From a virus: 64,000 bases of DNA. Position numbers and translations under genes: made by a program. The notes below the pieces were generated by a model. It saw nothing but the letters and a program-made list of their open reading frames with translations. It did not search any database and was not told the origin of the DNA. Within the stretch, counting starts at the first letter, position 1. Each line of letters begins with the position of its first letter. The DNA lies in IMG/VR virus record IMGVR_UViG_3300037483_000594, positions 1-64,000 of that record, one strand, 5' to 3'. Positions 4,941-54,835 of this stretch are shown here, in pieces.

Positions 4941-4946
4941 TATAAG
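4941..4946 (+). promoter_or_regulatory. TATAAG promoter-like motif at the start of the accessory block
   Basis: Intergenic GGTATAAGC; the same core recurs at 17039, 40720, 43813 and 51878 (-). Confidence 0.55.
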
Positions 4947-11665: not shown

Positions 11666-11715
11666 TTGATCACTGATCAGTGACTGATCATAATGGGGGG
11701 TATGACCACTGATCA
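11666..11715 (+). promoter_or_regulatory. Sigma70-type promoter overlaid by four TGATCA boxes
   Basis: TTGATC(11666)-N17-CATAAT(11689); TGATCA at 11667, 11674, 11685 and 11710; perfect palindrome TCACTGATCAGTGA at 11670-11683. Confidence 0.7.
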
Positions 11716-12142
11716 GATAGAGGCTGGGGTTGTCCGTACCTCCTCGGGGTGTTGGCTTTGGAAGTTTGCCAAGACCACGGAGGGGTACGGGCAGCTCCGG
11801 GTGGGGGGGAAGAGGGAGTACACGCACCGGGTGGTCTGGGCAGCACGGCACGGGCCGGTGCCCAGTACCCATTACGTGAGGCACCTTTGCCACCACCCCT
11901 CGTGCTGCAACCCTGAGCACCTGGCCTTGACCCGGAAGGGGGAGGGTATCCCCCTAACCCCGGAGAGAGTGGGGCCCCCCTTCCCGAGGGAGAAGCGCTA
12001 CAGGGTTCCCCCGGAGGTGGTGTTGGCCGTCCGGGAGAGGGGGGAGGTGGGTTGGACTGTCCGGGAGCTGGCCGAGCACTTCGGCTTGTCCCGGAACACT
12101 GTGCGCAGCTACCTGCGCTGGAGAACGCGGAAAGATGGCTAG
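11702..12142 (+). CDS. HNH endonuclease with C-terminal HTH
   Basis: SGCWLW, GYG, HRVVW, VRHLCHHPSCCNPEHL; C-terminal TVRELAEHFGLSRNTVRSYL. Confidence 0.9.
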   Translation: MTTDQIEAGVVRTSSGCWLWKFAKTTEGYGQLRVGGKREYTHRVVWAARHGPVPSTHYVRHLCHHPSCCNPEHLALTRKGEGIPLTPERVGPPFPREKRYRVPPEVVLAVRERGEVGWTVRELAEHFGLSRNTVRSYLRWRTRKDG

Positions 12143-12476
12143 GTACCAAGTGCCCCTCGACAAGTTCGACGGGGTGATGAGCTATCCGGAGATGCCCCTG
12201 CACGGCCCTACCAAGTGGGTCGACGCCTCCTACGAGTTCCAGGGCACCCTGCTCCTCAAGACGTATGAGCGAGGACGCTCTGCCGCCAGGTTCCTGTTCA
12301 GTAACGCCGAACGCCCGGAGCAAACCTTTCCCTTTGCCATGGCAGCCATGGCCGACATGCTTCACCAGGTCACCCTGGAACGCGGGAAGGTCTCCGGAAG
12401 GTTTGGTGTCCGGAAGCAGGGGCAGAACTACAGCATGGTGTACCTCGGCCCATTGGAGGTGACATGTACTTCGTAA
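12135..12476 (+). CDS. Phage hypothetical protein
   Basis: Coupled ORF with RGRSAARF and KQGQNY motifs. Confidence 0.7.
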   Translation: MARYQVPLDKFDGVMSYPEMPLHGPTKWVDASYEFQGTLLLKTYERGRSAARFLFSNAERPEQTFPFAMAAMADMLHQVTLERGKVSGRFGVRKQGQNYSMVYLGPLEVTCTS

Positions 12477-34875: not shown

Positions 34876-35467
34876 GTTGGAGCGAGTATACACAGACAAA
34901 AATGGATATGAGGTTGGAGTTTCCACCGAATACCGCGCTGGTATAGGTATCGCCTACTGCTCACTTCGTAAATTGGAAAACGAGTTTAAAAAGGTCCGTA
35001 GCCCTCGCCTTCCGTATCGCCAAAGCCTGGATCAGGCACTGGTTGATCTAGACCTCTATGCTACTCATATGGGATGGAAGAGAAAGTACACTGGCTCTGA
35101 GGCACCGACGACAGAGCAAGAAGCACCGGTCAAGCCACCAGGCATCGACGAGAGGCCTGCGTTCACTCCCCCAATCGGATTTTTTCGTCGTTTGATCATG
35201 GAAGCCCAAACAACGACAGATTCGGAAGCACAGGACAACGAGCCAAACCACGACGAGAAGCCCGAGTTCACGCCTCGCGTCGAGGCCCTGAATCAGGTCC
35301 TCGACGTCCTTGAGAAGAACCGCCGAGAACGGGAGTCAATGCTCCAGAAGGCACTGGAGGGTACGTCTGTGCTCACGCAGACCTTCTTCAAATGCTCCGA
35401 CTACATGATCCAGAAGCACATGGACGCGATCGCGGATGAAATCCACAAACTCATCAAAAACCAATGA
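34862..35467 (+). CDS. Hypothetical protein
   Basis: AAGGAG RBS; internal DE(R/K)PxFTP repeat; ends HMDAIADEIHKL. Confidence 0.65.
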   Translation: MEQHKLERVYTDKNGYEVGVSTEYRAGIGIAYCSLRKLENEFKKVRSPRLPYRQSLDQALVDLDLYATHMGWKRKYTGSEAPTTEQEAPVKPPGIDERPAFTPPIGFFRRLIMEAQTTTDSEAQDNEPNHDEKPEFTPRVEALNQVLDVLEKNRRERESMLQKALEGTSVLTQTFFKCSDYMIQKHMDAIADEIHKLIKNQ

Positions 35468-36210
35468 ACAAGATCATCTACGACGACTGCCTCTTCGCAC
35501 TTCGAGACATTCCCGATGAATCGGTTGACCTGGTCTACATCGACCCTCCGTTCAACACCGGGAAGGTTCAACGGCTTGGAGGGCACGAGTTCCAGGACTC
35601 CTTCGACAACTATGGCCGGTATCTGCAAGTCCGCCTCGAAGAGCTGCATCGGGTGCTCAAGAAGACCGGGTCACTGTTCTTCCACATTGACTACCGCGAG
35701 GCCCCTCGTTGCCGAATGCTTCTCGACGAGATCTTCGGGGTCGACTGCCTTCAAAACGAGATCATCTGGTCCTACGATTTTGGCGGGCGAGGAAAGCGGC
35801 GTTGGCCCGCCAAACACGACAACATCTATTGGTACTCGAAGAACCCGAAGAACTACACCTTCAACTACGGCGAGATCGACCGAGTGCCGTACCTGGCGCC
35901 AGGGCTCTGCGGCCCTGAGAAGGCTGCGAGGGGCAAGACCCCCACTGATGTGTGGTGGCAGACGATCGTTCCTACAGGAGGCAAGGAACGCACGGGCTAC
36001 CCTACCCAGAAACCGCTTGCCATTCTCGAGCGAATCGTGAAGGTCCACTCGAACGTCGGCGACCGGTGCCTCGATGCCTTCGCCGGGAGTGGGACGTTCG
36101 GAGAGGCCGCTGCAAAACACGGTCGGTTGTTCACCATGGTGGACAACAACCCAGAAGCTGTGGCAGTGATGCAAAAACGGCTTGCGCCGTACTTGGGGAG
36201 ACATGACTGA
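35464..36210 (+). CDS. Beta-class N6-adenine/N4-cytosine DNA methyltransferase (orphan)
   Basis: VDLVYIDPPFN precedes YPTQKP and LDAFAGSGT. Confidence 0.93.
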   Translation: MNKIIYDDCLFALRDIPDESVDLVYIDPPFNTGKVQRLGGHEFQDSFDNYGRYLQVRLEELHRVLKKTGSLFFHIDYREAPRCRMLLDEIFGVDCLQNEIIWSYDFGGRGKRRWPAKHDNIYWYSKNPKNYTFNYGEIDRVPYLAPGLCGPEKAARGKTPTDVWWQTIVPTGGKERTGYPTQKPLAILERIVKVHSNVGDRCLDAFAGSGTFGEAAAKHGRLFTMVDNNPEAVAVMQKRLAPYLGRHD

Positions 36211-39195: not shown

Positions 39196-39941
39196 AAAGC
39201 TCAACGCTAAAGCGGAAGCTCCGACAGGGAGCGCTTGTCTTCCACGCTAACGTGCTGCTCGGTGAGGAAATCTCGAACATGTGCGCTACGCGAGCGTCAC
39301 TAGAGGGCGGAGAGCTCACTCTGCACTTCTGCAACGTGCACTTCGACGGACTGCGTGCACTGAAGACACTGTTCACAGCGTGCAGGTTTGAGTCCTGCAC
39401 CTTCCAAGCCGCGGTCTTGAAGGAGTGTGTCTTCGAGAACTGTACGTTCAAATTCTGCACATTCAAAGGCCGCGCGACTGACATTTCTTCAGCCTTTCAG
39501 TGCTCCTTTGATCATTGCATTTTCGACAACATCGACTTCCGAGGTAGCACCTTCAAAAAGAGCGAGTTCGTGCGCTCCCTATTCGACTCTGTTGACTTCA
39601 CTGGGTGTGACCTCTCCGCTGTCTCGTTTCATGGCAACTCCTTTTCGTGGATGGAGGTGCGGGGTGCGAAGATAAACCTGAACTGCTCTGAAATGATCGG
39701 GTTTATCCTAACCTACTACGGATACAAGTCAGGCGCGCGCCTGGCGCTTGCACGCCAATTCGAGTTCGGAACGGCGAAGCTCACTGGGAAGGGCCCTCTG
39801 CAACAGTGGGCAGTGCGAACCCTGGCCAGGCACACGTCCAAGGAACAGAAGGGGCTGCTTCCTGCTCCTGCCAAACGACGCAAGGAGGAGAAGCTCGAGG
39901 CCTTGATCGAAAAGGTGGTTCGGAGGATAAACAAGAAGTAG
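39192..39941 (+). CDS. Pentapeptide-repeat protein
   Basis: Repeating CxFxx/xxFxx pentads (ACRFE SCTFQ...ECVFE NCTFK FCTFK). Confidence 0.85.
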   Translation: MKSSTLKRKLRQGALVFHANVLLGEEISNMCATRASLEGGELTLHFCNVHFDGLRALKTLFTACRFESCTFQAAVLKECVFENCTFKFCTFKGRATDISSAFQCSFDHCIFDNIDFRGSTFKKSEFVRSLFDSVDFTGCDLSAVSFHGNSFSWMEVRGAKINLNCSEMIGFILTYYGYKSGARLALARQFEFGTAKLTGKGPLQQWAVRTLARHTSKEQKGLLPAPAKRRKEEKLEALIEKVVRRINKK

Positions 39942-39949
39942 GAGGAAGT

Positions 39950-40504
39950 GTGTCTATCCCACCGAAGGATCACGTAGGGCTGGCCTGGAGCCGGGTAACC
40001 ATCTGGTGTCGGAGAAACCCGGAATGGGACAAAGATGACGTGTTCGAGGCCGCTCTCAACGGGCTTTACGAGGGGTGCAAACGCTTTGACGAGACAAGAG
40101 GAGTTCGCCCCAGCACCTACGTGGTGAAGTGGATTGACGAGTACATCAGGAGGTCACGCCGGCCACTGGCTGGGGTCAAGCACGCAAAGCTCGGGAGTGA
40201 TCCGCTCACATACATCGAAGACGTGACAAAAATCGACGCCATGTGGAAGCGCGTGGCTGGGGATGTAGAGACCGCAGACGACCATCTGTCAAAAAAAGAG
40301 GTGGCCAGGTTGCTGTGGGAAGCGGTGCAAGAACTTCCTCCAAAGAAGCGCTACTGCGTGACGCAGTACTTCTACGAGGGCAAGACCTACGCGGAGATAG
40401 GAAGCACTTTTGGCACTTCGCGTCAGGCGGTAGAGAGCCTTATCCGTGGGACCCTACAGTTTCTAAAGACAAAGCTGACGAGGTTGCATGGTGACTTTAT
40501 TTGA
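39950..40504 (+). CDS. Sigma-70 family RNA polymerase sigma factor
   Basis: Region 2 GLYEGCKRFDETRGVRPSTYVVKWI; region 4 TYAEIGSTFGTSRQAV. Confidence 0.88.
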   Translation: MSIPPKDHVGLAWSRVTIWCRRNPEWDKDDVFEAALNGLYEGCKRFDETRGVRPSTYVVKWIDEYIRRSRRPLAGVKHAKLGSDPLTYIEDVTKIDAMWKRVAGDVETADDHLSKKEVARLLWEAVQELPPKKRYCVTQYFYEGKTYAEIGSTFGTSRQAVESLIRGTLQFLKTKLTRLHGDFI

Positions 40505-42579: not shown

Positions 42580-42897
42580 TTGGTCCAGCGTTAGCACGGT
42601 TCTTTCAGCTTTATTCGCGTCAGTTAGCTTGTTGACCAACAGCGTGACGAGGAAAGGCCGAGTGCAAAGGCAGCTTCAAATGTTCCGATGAGGAACACCC
42701 GAAGGTTGCCGGTTCGAGTCCGACACGCGGAACCTGGCTGGACATAAATTCCGCGTTAGCTCAATGGAAGAGCGTCGGTTGTTAGCATAAGGAGATGTCG
42801 TGCGCGCGGAGCCGTAAACACCTCAAACAGAATCCAAGGCCACACGGTGGCTTTAGAGTCTGATAGACGGCCCACAGAAGGTGATCTGTGGGCCGTC
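42580..42897 (+). ncRNA. Structured ncRNA with a circularly permuted tRNA-like domain (YrlA/Y-RNA-like topology)
   Basis: Variable loop AGGTT 42703-07; T-arm GCCGG-TTCGAGT-CCGAC 42708-24; acceptor stem ACGCGGAA 42725-32 / TTCCGCGT 42749-56; TA; D-arm GCTC-AATGGAA-GAGC 42759-73; closing stem AACACCCGA 42694-702 / TCGGTTGTT 42775-83. Confidence 0.8.
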
Positions 42898-43388: not shown

Positions 43389-43395
43389 CTCCATC

Positions 43396-43424
43396 GCCCA
43401 GGTCCACATAGTGTGGGCCTGGGC
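43396..43424 (+). terminator. Strong hairpin after the gene, bordering the non-coding region
   Basis: GCCCAGGTCCACA-tag-TGTGGGCCTGGGC. Confidence 0.6.
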
Positions 43425-43429
43425 AACCT

Positions 43430-44100
43430 TCCCCAGTTAGACGATCTTTTTTAGCCATCTTGCCGTAGTTGAAATACTGATCACACCGTAACAGTACGAT
43501 ATCACAGCGCTAACATCATGTACTACGCTACAGTCAATTTACACATATTTGTAACGCGTCGTAATTGTTGAGTTCTGCTCGTGTGCTACACTGATCAACT
43601 GCAATTGATCAGTGATCAGTGTGTGTTTCGCAAGTGCTTGTAATCTGTTGGAGGGCAAAAGTGAGACTGATCACCGATGAGGTCTACAGGCCACAGATTT
43701 TGAAAATGTGGGAAGCTTATTTTCGGCGTAGTTCGCTCTGCATTTTAAAAAGTAACGTGTAAATGCTCCAAAACTGATCAGTTGATAAGTGAAGGGACGT
43801 CGACGATTCTGCTATAAGCATTTGTACGCATTAGCTTTTTAGCAAGACTGATCAAAAAAACTGATCAATCCTTCCGGTGTGCTGAGCGTGTAGCGTGTGT
43901 AGTGGAGATACAGCACATGCGGAAGGGGGGTGGGTGTGTGACGCTGTTGTCGATGAGGGGGTTCGGAGGGTGGTGTTTTGGGGTGTGTGTATTGTGTTAA
44001 TGAATATATGAGTTTTATTAATGTATTTATATATATTTTAACTTAACTACTATTCATTAAAACAACTAAACAACTACACAAGAGGTGTAGGTGTTTACCA
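43430..44100. other. Candidate replication origin (or packaging site)
   Basis: The only long ORF-free region; eight ACTGATCA/TGATCAGT boxes; AT-rich core with an inverted repeat; local switch from G/T-rich to A/C-rich sequence. Confidence 0.65.
43476..43867. repeat. Eight ACTGATCA iteron-like boxes
   Basis: TGATCA cores at 43478, 43592, 43606, 43613, 43668, 43775, 43849 and 43862. Confidence 0.9.
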
Positions 44101-44113
44101 TATAGGAGAACGC

Positions 44114-51923: not shown

Positions 51924-52307
51924 ATGAGAGACAAGATGCGCACACCTATTGACGAGTTCTCTCTTTTTGAAAAAGTCGCGGCCTTGCGTGAGGTGTTGAA
52001 CAGACGGCACCTGCGGCCTGTCGCCCGGACGCGTTCAGGGAGCACTCCTGCGCACGTGGACACGCTGCGCCGGCAGCCCTTCGAGCTACCGAGCGAGGCG
52101 TTGGAGCGCGGCAAGCTGAAACTCGCGTTGTGCCCTGAGGGGTATCCGGAGTTCGATCCGCGGTTGCGGAAGCTTGGTCTCGAGGTGGACCAGCTCGAGG
52201 ACATGGCCGAGGAACAGCTCTCGAAGCTGGAGCAGACAGGACGCGGCAAGGCCATCGGGCGGTTGCCGGTGTTCTACGAGAAGCTGCGGGGCGCGTTGGA
52301 TGCGTGA
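51924..52307 (+). CDS. Hypothetical protein
   Basis: Divergent from the minus-strand pair; N-terminal DEF...EKVAA. Confidence 0.6.
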   Translation: MRDKMRTPIDEFSLFEKVAALREVLNRRHLRPVARTRSGSTPAHVDTLRRQPFELPSEALERGKLKLALCPEGYPEFDPRLRKLGLEVDQLEDMAEEQLSKLEQTGRGKAIGRLPVFYEKLRGALDA

Positions 52308-53094
52308 CACTAGCCCGCTCGCGGACTACGTGGGGTACCGTGACGAACTGGACCTCGTCTTGCGCGCGTGCTGTCTTGAGAAGGAGGCGGCCAAGGGTGC
52401 CGCGGAAAAGGATCTTGTCCTGTGGCAGCAGTGGAACGCCAGCAAAGACCCACAGGACATGGACACCCTCTTCAAACAGGTTCGCCCGATCATCGCCAAG
52501 GCGGTGAACGTGTACGCGGGCAAGGTCAACATTCCAACCCCGGCTATCCAAGCAGAGTTCGAGCGGCACGCGCTCTCCGCCATCAAGACTTACGACCCGA
52601 CACGCAGCGCGCTGCACACACACATCACCAACCAGCTAAACCGTGGGAAGCGGTTTGTCGTTACTTATCAAAATGTGGCGCGCGTTCCCGAGAACAGGTC
52701 CTACAGGATCGGAGAGTTCTTGCGTGCGAAGGAGGAGCTTGGGGACAACCTAGGGCGTGAGCCGAGCTCTATGGAACTCGCTGATCACATGAAGTGGCCG
52801 GTGTCCCAGATCGCAAAGCTCGAGCAGGAGATGCGCGCGGAGGTTCCTACCTCGCATCTTGAGGGTGGGGACCTGACCTCTGTGTACACCTCTCCGGAAG
52901 CGGAGCTGCTGCAGCTCCTTCCCGGGGAGCTGACCGGGGAGGAGAAGCTGGTCTACGAGTACGTTACGGGGTCAAACGGCAAGCCAAAGCTCTCCGGCAC
53001 CCAGATAGCGCAGCGGACCGGGCTGAGTCCGGCAAAGGTATCGCGGCTGAGGTCATCGGTCGCGACAAAGGTCAAGAAGTACTACAGGGGCTAG
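52300..53094 (+). CDS. Sigma-70 family (FliA/SigF-like) sigma factor
   Basis: AIKTYDPTRSALHTHI, RVPE, LGREPSSMELADHM, QIAQRTGLSPAKVSRL. Confidence 0.88.
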   Translation: MRDTSPLADYVGYRDELDLVLRACCLEKEAAKGAAEKDLVLWQQWNASKDPQDMDTLFKQVRPIIAKAVNVYAGKVNIPTPAIQAEFERHALSAIKTYDPTRSALHTHITNQLNRGKRFVVTYQNVARVPENRSYRIGEFLRAKEELGDNLGREPSSMELADHMKWPVSQIAKLEQEMRAEVPTSHLEGGDLTSVYTSPEAELLQLLPGELTGEEKLVYEYVTGSNGKPKLSGTQIAQRTGLSPAKVSRLRSSVATKVKKYYRG

Positions 53095-54535: not shown

Positions 54536-54835
54536 GTGGGCGAGAGCTTTGATGAGCGACTCTACGAACAGCAGTGCTTTCGGGACGCGTGCGCTGGAAC
54601 GATGCTACGCGCTCTCCGCGATCTGCTCGAGGGAAGCGAAGAAGCGCGCCGTTGGTTTTTGAGTGAGCCACGTGACGAGGAGTACGGGGTCACCCTTAAC
54701 GTCATCTGTGCACATCTGAACTTTTGTGCGCCGAGGGTAAGGCGCTGGGTCGTGACCTATCTGAGAGAGGGGTCTTCGGACGAGCTGTTCAGACTTTTAC
54801 GCATGCGGGGGACGACTGTGAAAAACCATGAATGA
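54536..54835 (+). CDS. Hypothetical protein
   Basis: AGGAG RBS; ALRDL...ARRWF...ICAHL. Confidence 0.6.
   Translation: MGESFDERLYEQQCFRDACAGTMLRALRDLLEGSEEARRWFLSEPRDEEYGVTLNVICAHLNFCAPRVRRWVVTYLREGSSDELFRLLRMRGTTVKNHE

Follow-up and report, generated by a model that had tools for sequence, protein, structure and literature searches.

Clusters of an eight-base word at three loci of an uncultured phage, with a helix-less HNH-HTH protein as candidate binder

Introduction

Which protein reads the short repeated word that lies across the promoter of a small HNH-HTH gene in an uncultured phage, and what is the same word doing in a non-coding region elsewhere in the genome? The DNA in question, referred to here as the window, is a stretch of 64,000 bases (1-64000) from the 170,135-bp IMG/VR contig IMGVR_UViG_3300037483_000594, which is 94% complete and has a GC content of 60%. 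The gene encodes a 146-residue protein that joins a domain of the HNH_3 (His-Me) family to a helix-turn-helix (HTH), and the word, called the box below, is ACTGATCA. The boxes are a real and compact set of cis-elements with a plausible, unproven trans factor. We consider it close to an even chance that ACTGATCA is the recognition word of one phage DNA-binding protein, that its operators at three loci form a regulon, and that the HNH-HTH protein is the likely binder and autorepressor. What this analysis adds is the link of the boxes to the HNH-HTH promoter and the cluster at 147 kb. The coordinates of the features are collected in Table 1.

Distribution and shape of the box

The window contains 13 copies of ACTGATCA on the two strands, where 1.2 would be expected; in 100 dinucleotide shuffles of the window, 13 was never reached. 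All of these copies are confined to 11672-11715 and 43476-43867. The original prediction, which was made from the letters of the window, held that clusters of the word occur at these two places only; this is correct for the window, but not for the whole contig, where a third pair (147001 and 147020) lies within a 97-bp divergent intergenic region. The contig holds 18 copies altogether, including single copies at 92815, 125853, and 139062 that lie in coding sequence or at its edges, about as many as chance would give (3.2 per shuffled genome). In 200 Markov-shuffled whole genomes, the maximum was 2 boxes per 500-bp window, while 9 and 4 were observed. A literature search for the word returned primers only. 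Variant boxes at 134.5-135.8 kb were also considered and were dropped, as they fall inside a coding gene with a low GC content at third codon positions (GC3). This gene, at 133955-137685 of the contig, encodes a LamG/lectin-like protein, has an unusually low GC3, and is probably a recently acquired gene of the tail-fibre type.

A profile was derived from an alignment of the 15 clustered copies. The box is a sharp 8-mer, with information at background on both flanks except for a preference for W at position +9 that mirrors A1. The dinucleotide AC is present on one side in 13 of the 14 clustered TGATCA cores and on both sides in two. Because the AC is mostly one-sided, the box is asymmetric and not the palindrome of a dimer. 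Nine boxes are forward-only, two are palindromic, and two are reverse-only, and the distances between boxes are irregular, ranging from 7 to 114 bp. Downstream of the box, no element is conserved at any constant distance (information below 0.35 bit at +10 to +27). The absence of both a conserved flank and a fixed downstream -10 element implies that the box is the site of a factor and not part of a promoter. Judged from the sequence alone, this is the trace that a monomeric sequence-specific binder would be expected to leave.

These properties bear directly on whether the word could instead be a promoter element, such as a -35 element, for a sigma factor of the phage itself. The genome does encode an ECF-like sigma factor at 39806-40504 (Sigma70_r2 and Sigma70_r4, E about 1e-10), 3 kb upstream of the non-coding region at 43.5 kb, as well as a second sigma-like protein at 52174-53094 (Sigma70_r3, 1e-7) among the virion genes, and the excess of forward-only over reverse-only boxes is in the direction that a promoter element would give. 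However, the boxes occur in both orientations and as palindromes, and they are found at -10/+1, in the spacer, at +7, and downstream of promoter-like elements. With neither a fixed orientation nor a fixed spacing to a second element, the assignment of ACTGATCA as a sigma -35 element was rejected, and we attach almost no probability to this explanation.

The boxes could also matter through their GATC core, as methylation-sensitive sites of a SeqA-, Dam-, or P1-PacA-like kind that respond to the adenine methyltransferase of the phage. GATC is inside every box, and an orphan beta-class N6_N4 methyltransferase is encoded at 35464-36210 (Pfam 8e-45), which NCBIfam describes as adenine-specific. Among solved structures, this enzyme is closest to M.RsrI and next to MboIIA and CcrM; none of the three is specific for GATC, and the known GATC enzyme DpnA matches only the C-terminal part. 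No Dam of the D12 class is present in the genome. GATC occurs 574 times across the contig, approximately its expected frequency, and the conservation of the box extends beyond GATC to all 8 positions. A role through methylation of the core is therefore very improbable.

The promoter of the HNH-HTH gene

The densest arrangement of boxes lies at 11.67 kb, where the original prediction described four TGATCA cores, three of them ACTGATCA, over a promoter and the first codons of the HNH-HTH gene. The sequence bears out this description. The plus-strand boxes start at 11672, 11683, and 11708, a minus-strand box starts at 11674, and positions 11672-11681 form the 10-bp palindrome ACTGATCAGT. The boxes fill the -35 hexamer and the spacer and reach into the upstream edge of the -10 element, while a fourth is located at codons 3-5. 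The TTGATC-N17-CATAAT element is the sole promoter match within 1 kb, with 0.1 expected in shuffles. The coding sequence starts at 11702 as ATG ACC ACT GAT CAG (M-T-T-D-Q), and the public gene call agrees on this start and on a length of 146 residues.

Only 7 nucleotides separate the end of the -10 hexamer from this ATG, and no normally spaced GGAGG precedes the gene, unlike the other genes of the phage. Together these two features suggest that the mRNA is probably leaderless, or nearly so. Since the ATG of the next gene (12135) overlaps the stop codon, the two genes belong to the same operon, and the 11.67-kb promoter probably drives the run of small genes that follows, which belong to PHROG families of unknown function.

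A similar relation to promoter-like elements is seen at the other loci. At 43.5 kb, the final three bases of the putative extended -10 element TGCTACACT are the first three bases of the box at 43590. The nearby TGCTATAAG copy at 43810 has the palindromic box 31-40 nucleotides upstream and two boxes 29-54 nucleotides downstream. At 147 kb, the box at 147020 lies 8 nucleotides upstream of a further TGCTATAAG (TATAAG at 147036). From our reading of the sequence, the boxes in all three regions overlap or flank promoter-like elements, which is the usual place of operators. The TATAAG hexamer was identified in a k-mer comparison of intergenic and coding DNA as a recurrent -10-like element, often in the form TGnTATAAG, with 14 intergenic and 5 coding copies, usually located 15-40 nucleotides before a start codon. 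This element probably represents the main host-type promoter class of the phage. Copies start at 4941, 17039, 29007, 40720, and 43813 in the window and at 92693, 100221, 117720, 118168, 130523, 147036, and 158255 of the contig.

The HNH-HTH protein

We examined the protein encoded behind the 11.67-kb promoter by profile searches, alignment, and an AlphaFold2 (AF2) model with a mean predicted local distance difference test (pLDDT) of 85.8. The core of the HNH_3 family, C-W-x-W ... H-R ... H-x-C-x4-C-x-N-P-x-H-L, is intact, with the invariant residues C17, W18, W20, H42, R43, H61, C63, C68, P71, H73, and L74 all present. An exhaustive HMMER search yielded 150,174 representative relatives at E<=1e-3; a typical member has a single complete HNH_3 module, accompanied by one to four accessory ones, and an HTH at the C-terminus. 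Thirty relatives were aligned over both domains, and residue conservation was taken from a 44-sequence alignment. After H-L-x-L, the complete module runs into a helix with the pattern G-T-x-x-[DE]-N-x-x-D, which is present in 30 of the 30 relatives, with the Asn in 29. This Asn is the metal ligand contributed by the protein in I-PpoI and I-HmuI (PMC5714182).

The GTxxDNxxD helix and its metal-ligand Asn are absent from the phage protein. The helix stretch, approximately 10 residues, is deleted, and the chain continues as L-T-R-K-G-E-G into the Pro-rich linker. At positions where the G, N, and D of the family are conserved to at least 90%, the phage protein has T77, G82, and L85, with G82 replacing the metal ligand. 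The AF2 model shows no helix after the strand at 74-78, and in a genome-wide HNH_3 scan the match covers model positions 2-39 of 46 only. Loss of the helix that carries the metal ligand means that the nuclease is probably dead. Nicking by this protein, which had been proposed, is thus unlikely, and the sequence and model together point to what is probably a non-cutting DNA binder derived from HNH_3.

Comparison of folds placed the N-terminal domain with I-PpoI (Z 6.2, 88 residues) and I-HmuI (Z 6.1, 79 residues), and the HTH with the corresponding domains of resolvase, Hin, Tc3, and IstA (Z 6.4-6.6). Foldseek additionally returned weak matches to Smad MH1 (probability about 0.9, template modeling (TM) score 0.35). 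The residues R-E-K-R-Y-R precede the first helix of the HTH. There is no second HNH_3 gene in the genome. The reading frame is intact, and its GC3 of 0.83 and a codon adaptation index in the 83rd percentile are typical of the phage, indicating a resident gene and not a recent invader. The lost catalytic helix and Asn, the retained HTH, and the phage-typical codon usage provide independent support for the earlier proposal of a domesticated HNH-HTH protein.

Identity of the binder

Other candidates were sought in six-frame scans of the whole contig with the HTH_3, HTH_17, HTH_23, Sigma70_r4, and RHH_1 models. Above the curated cut-offs, the HNH-HTH protein was the sole non-sigma protein, accompanied by the sigma factor at 40.3 kb; one weak extra match, at 54680-54772, was unconfirmed by Pfam. 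Its standing as the only such match favours the HNH-HTH protein as the binder. So does the fact that no other cluster is as dense or as well placed as the one on its promoter and first codons, an arrangement typical of autoregulation. A third argument is the nature of its HTH: domains of this type recognise asymmetric sites as monomers, often with the help of a basic arm in the minor groove. The HNH-HTH protein is the leading candidate, and we judge the odds that it binds the boxes to be nearly balanced.

A mechanism consistent with these features can be proposed. The protein would combine a Zn-stabilised His-Me core with a resolvase/Hin-like HTH preceded by a basic arm. An HTH of this kind reads asymmetric sites of ~8-12 bp as a monomer, in keeping with a one-sided 8-mer found in both orientations. 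The gene would be expressed from a leaderless promoter of the sigma-70 type, and its product would occupy the four sites from -35 to +14, shutting off its own operon including the small genes downstream. The same protein may also sit on the boxes that overlap or flank promoter-like elements at 43.4-43.9 and 147.0 kb.

Several points weigh against this assignment. Most proteins of the phage are ORFans beyond the reach of Pfam, and the true binder could be a regulator hidden among them, for example a ribbon-helix-helix-like 85-residue protein at 147 kb. The HNH-HTH protein lacks close homologues; its protein cluster has two further members, both of them identical copies on 3-kb contigs. Accessory repeats without the helix are frequent in the HNH_3 family (113 of 314 modules), so loss of the helix alone is no proof of a new function, and the phage module may be a retained module of the accessory type instead of one that has recently degraded. 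The gene could also be a homing-endonuclease gene in decay that simply follows a promoter regulated by something else.

The 147.0-kb locus is where an alternative regulator might be sought, as the pair of boxes there sits between two divergent operons of small ORFans. The 85-residue protein, which starts with MPPDTHVTISVKVP, is encoded on the minus strand at 146249-146506 of the contig (L110:3250-3507) in an operon that diverges from the boxes. It gave weak ribbon-helix-helix leads (Atlas 0.90-0.92; TM 0.57/0.78 to an RHH_1 cluster) and is not detected by the Pfam RHH_1 model. A 138-residue protein at 147268-147684 had no match in Pfam, PHROGs, NCBIfam, or the PDB. An initial guess that this second protein is a winged helix was dropped, as an Atlas value of 0.89 is a mere lead and the single-sequence AF2 model, with a pLDDT of 43, is unusable.

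The arrangement at 147 kb and the leads for the 85-residue protein would suit an explanation in which another phage regulator, or a host protein, binds the boxes and the HNH-HTH gene is a decaying remnant that is first behind a regulated promoter. Degenerate homing-endonuclease genes are common in phages (PMC2988022), and Pfam and PHROGs are silent on most of the neighbouring proteins. Yet the five DNA-binding models found no other non-sigma candidate in the whole genome at their curated cut-offs, RHH_1 misses the 85-residue protein, and the HNH-HTH reading frame is intact and codon-adapted. The promoter and first codons of the HNH-HTH gene itself carry the boxes that are densest and best placed. 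We regard a different binder as a substantial possibility, though one with less in its favour than binding by the HNH-HTH protein.

The 43.4-44.1-kb non-coding region

The second cluster lies in a non-coding region that separates a long block of small genes from the virion-type genes (a baseplate-like protein is encoded at 58.5 kb). The surrounding genes encode ORFans, an AAA+ ATPase, and a lytic transglycosylase (a protein with an SLT domain); the first gene after the region is an ORFan. All eight TGATCA cores of this cluster extend to ACTGATCA on one strand. The lowest GC content of the genome is found here, at 43.4-44.2 kb, with a minimum of 0.28, such as an AT-rich unwinding element would show. 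The single-stranded fold of the inverted repeat at 43992-44065 is far better than that of shuffled sequences (z = -4.3).

The original prediction regarded this region as a candidate origin or pac site at which the boxes would be initiator sites and the HNH-HTH protein an autoregulating initiator or nickase, an explanation that is compatible with a regulon. Eight asymmetric boxes in both orientations do lie beside the most AT-rich, cruciform-capable DNA in the genome. A promoter-like element is followed by a tract that is G-rich on the non-template strand and then by AT-rich DNA, an order that recalls the transcription-primed origins of T4 and T7. AT skew is positive from 12 to 43 kb, negative from 44 to 96 kb, and positive thereafter, and thus changes sign at about 44 kb. 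The pac site of phage P1 offers a parallel, being built from seven hexanucleotide repeats (PMC11260489).

Several observations speak against this explanation. GC skew never turns negative anywhere in the 170 kb: it is positive even in the minus-strand block at 73-93 kb and does not flip at 43.5 kb. The region contains no match to the DnaA box (TTWTNCACA), no replication or terminase gene adjoins it, and Terminase_6N was not found. The boxes are 8 bp long, spaced at 7-114 bp, present in both orientations, and devoid of conserved flanks, whereas iterons are regular direct repeats of ~17-22 bp, and the region bears promoter-like elements as well. The gene of the candidate initiator lies at a distance of 32 kb, and its product has no Rep-type fold and lacks the metal-binding helix, making nicking improbable. 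At 147 kb, the same boxes are part of an unremarkable divergent promoter region. The proposal of an origin or pac at 43.5 kb thus gained no support, and we view it as unlikely. A hub for the control of transcription would account for everything seen at 43.4-44.1 kb.

Table 1. Features of the 11.67-kb and 43.5-kb loci, in window coordinates
Feature	Position	Strand	Remarks
Sigma-70-like promoter, TTGATC-N17-CATAAT	11666..11694	+	Promoter scan, 9/12 matches
Box cluster 1	11667..11715	both	TGATCA cores at 11667, 11674, 11685, 11710
HNH_3 + HTH gene, 146 residues	11702..12142	+	Pfam HNH_3 9.4e-13, HTH_23 1.1e-5
Degenerate His-Me domain	residues 1-80, 11702-11941	+	Confident in AF2 model
Pro-rich disordered linker	residues 81-103, 11942-12010	+	
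Three-helix HTH	residues 104-139, 12011-12118	+	pLDDT above 90
Next gene	12135..12476	+	ATG overlaps HNH-HTH stop by 8 nucleotides; first in run of small genes
Non-coding region, 725 bp	43389..44113		No open reading frame above 47 residues, no Rfam match inside
Hairpin, 13-bp stem, closing upstream transcription unit	43396..43424	+	
Box cluster 2	43476..43867	both	ACTGATCA at 43476+, 43590+, 43606-, 43613-, 43666+, 43847+, 43860+; palindrome 43773-43782
Putative extended -10-like element, TGCTACACT	43584..43592	+	Inferred from pattern scan
TGCTATAAG, copy of recurrent -10-like element	43810..43818	+	
AT-rich inverted repeat, 15-nucleotide arms, 44-nucleotide spacer	43992..44065		After G/T-rich tract

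Comparison with known systems

The HNH-HTH protein and its candidate sites were compared with characterized systems. I-TevI, the GIY-YIG enzyme of the T4 td intron, represses its own promoter through an operator without cutting there (Edgell et al. 2004; review PMC2988022). Like the phage protein, it is of the homing-endonuclease type with a C-terminal HTH on a flexible linker. The binding site of I-TevI overlaps its own promoter; in the phage, four candidate sites overlap a sigma-70-like promoter and the first codons. I-TevI differs in having an active GIY-YIG domain and one operator that mimics the homing site, while the His-Me (HNH_3) module of the phage protein looks dead and its putative operators are many short 8-mers that recur at two other loci. 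The I-HmuI group (HNH_3 group 2 His-Me, PDB 1u3e; PMC5714182) shares the C/W/H/R core, the catalytic-type His61, the C-terminal HTH, and the fold (Z 6.1), but the phage protein is a single module of 146 residues without the GTxxDNxxD Asn helix.

Smad MH1 is a His-Me nuclease that has degraded yet retains DNA binding (PMC5714182), and Smad MH1 and NFI, which were recruited as transcription factors, resemble the phage protein in keeping a catalysis-less His-Me fold as a DNA-binding module (Grishin 2001; PMC5714182). These are, however, eukaryotic proteins with no HTH partner, and the similarity is at the level of the fold, with weak scores. I-TevI is the closest functional precedent and Smad MH1 the closest evolutionary one. 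The phage protein should be filed as a probably non-catalytic DNA-binding protein derived from HNH_3.

The phi29 p4/p6 region and P1 C1, with its many asymmetric and scattered operators, are examples of early/late switch repressors of phages with multiple operators. The likeness lies in one phage protein that would recognise a short asymmetric word at more than one promoter, one such place being a non-coding hub between gene blocks. The present system is unrelated to these in sequence, lysogeny genes were not seen, and the box is 8 bp where the P1 C1 operator is 17 bp. An iteron origin or P1 pac likewise has repeated short boxes by AT-rich DNA, and here the same boxes are in the promoter of the candidate binder. 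The repeats of P1 pac were reportedly described by Sternberg and Coulby in 1990 as reading TGATCA/G and being controlled by Dam, and we take the TGATCA core to be identical to the pac hexamer. Compared with an iteron origin, the size and spacing of the boxes differ, the gene is not adjacent, and there is neither a Rep fold nor a skew flip; compared with P1 pac, there is no Dam of the D12 class, and the phage region is not inside a terminase gene.

Should the HNH-HTH protein prove to be the binder, viruses would provide a clear case of a selfish nuclease converted into a regulator, and one protein with one 8-bp word at three loci would offer a testable handle on the expression programme of an ORFan-rich phage. 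If the protein does not bind, the three-locus set of boxes would still be a compact regulon, and its factor could be retrieved with a DNA bait. A bolder extension is that a large lytic phage recruited a helix-less homing endonuclease as a master DNA-binding switch, with a leaderless, self-repressed promoter and three target loci. The 43.5-kb hub would then divide the early small-gene block from the virion genes and possibly serve as a transcription-primed origin. We hold this extension to be doubtful; if true, it would be the prokaryotic-virus counterpart of the Smad MH1 story.

Relatives and additional observations

Searches for relatives of the phage were carried out at the DNA and protein levels. 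A phage DNA database contained no match to this DNA, and protein scans with the HNH-HTH protein and with the AAA+ ATPase returned distant domain relatives only, with nothing close. Among loci that contain a DUF7873 gene (L009-L032), only DUF7873 is common with this phage. A search of IMG/VR for the triple-box pattern gave 75 loci, none of which is related to this phage.

Near the 43.5-kb region, a weak Rfam match to YrlA (Y RNA-like) was seen at 42688-42791 (28.6 bits, E 0.0014, below the gathering score) in the non-coding stretch directly after the DUF7873 gene of this phage. In two of the other DUF7873 loci, 22-bp tandem arrays of 5-7 copies with an internal palindrome (TTGTATACAA; ATACC-C-GGTAT) are present (L010:7417-7565 and L015:7856-7976). 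Both are iteron-like and lie shortly before a gene, some 2 kb downstream of the DUF7873 gene. These arrays were considered as positional analogues of the phage region and were dropped, as they are not syntenic and each record has one array.

Many intergenic arrays of the 7-bp heptads CACTGAT(C)/CACTGGC were found in nine loci (L035, L047, L051, L053, L084, L088, L094, L101, and L102). The IMG/VR contigs are of unrelated tailed phages with a GC content of 57-61%, have 18-44 copies of ACTGATCA per locus, and have no protein similarity to this phage. The arrays may represent a heptad system like that of the omega repressor.

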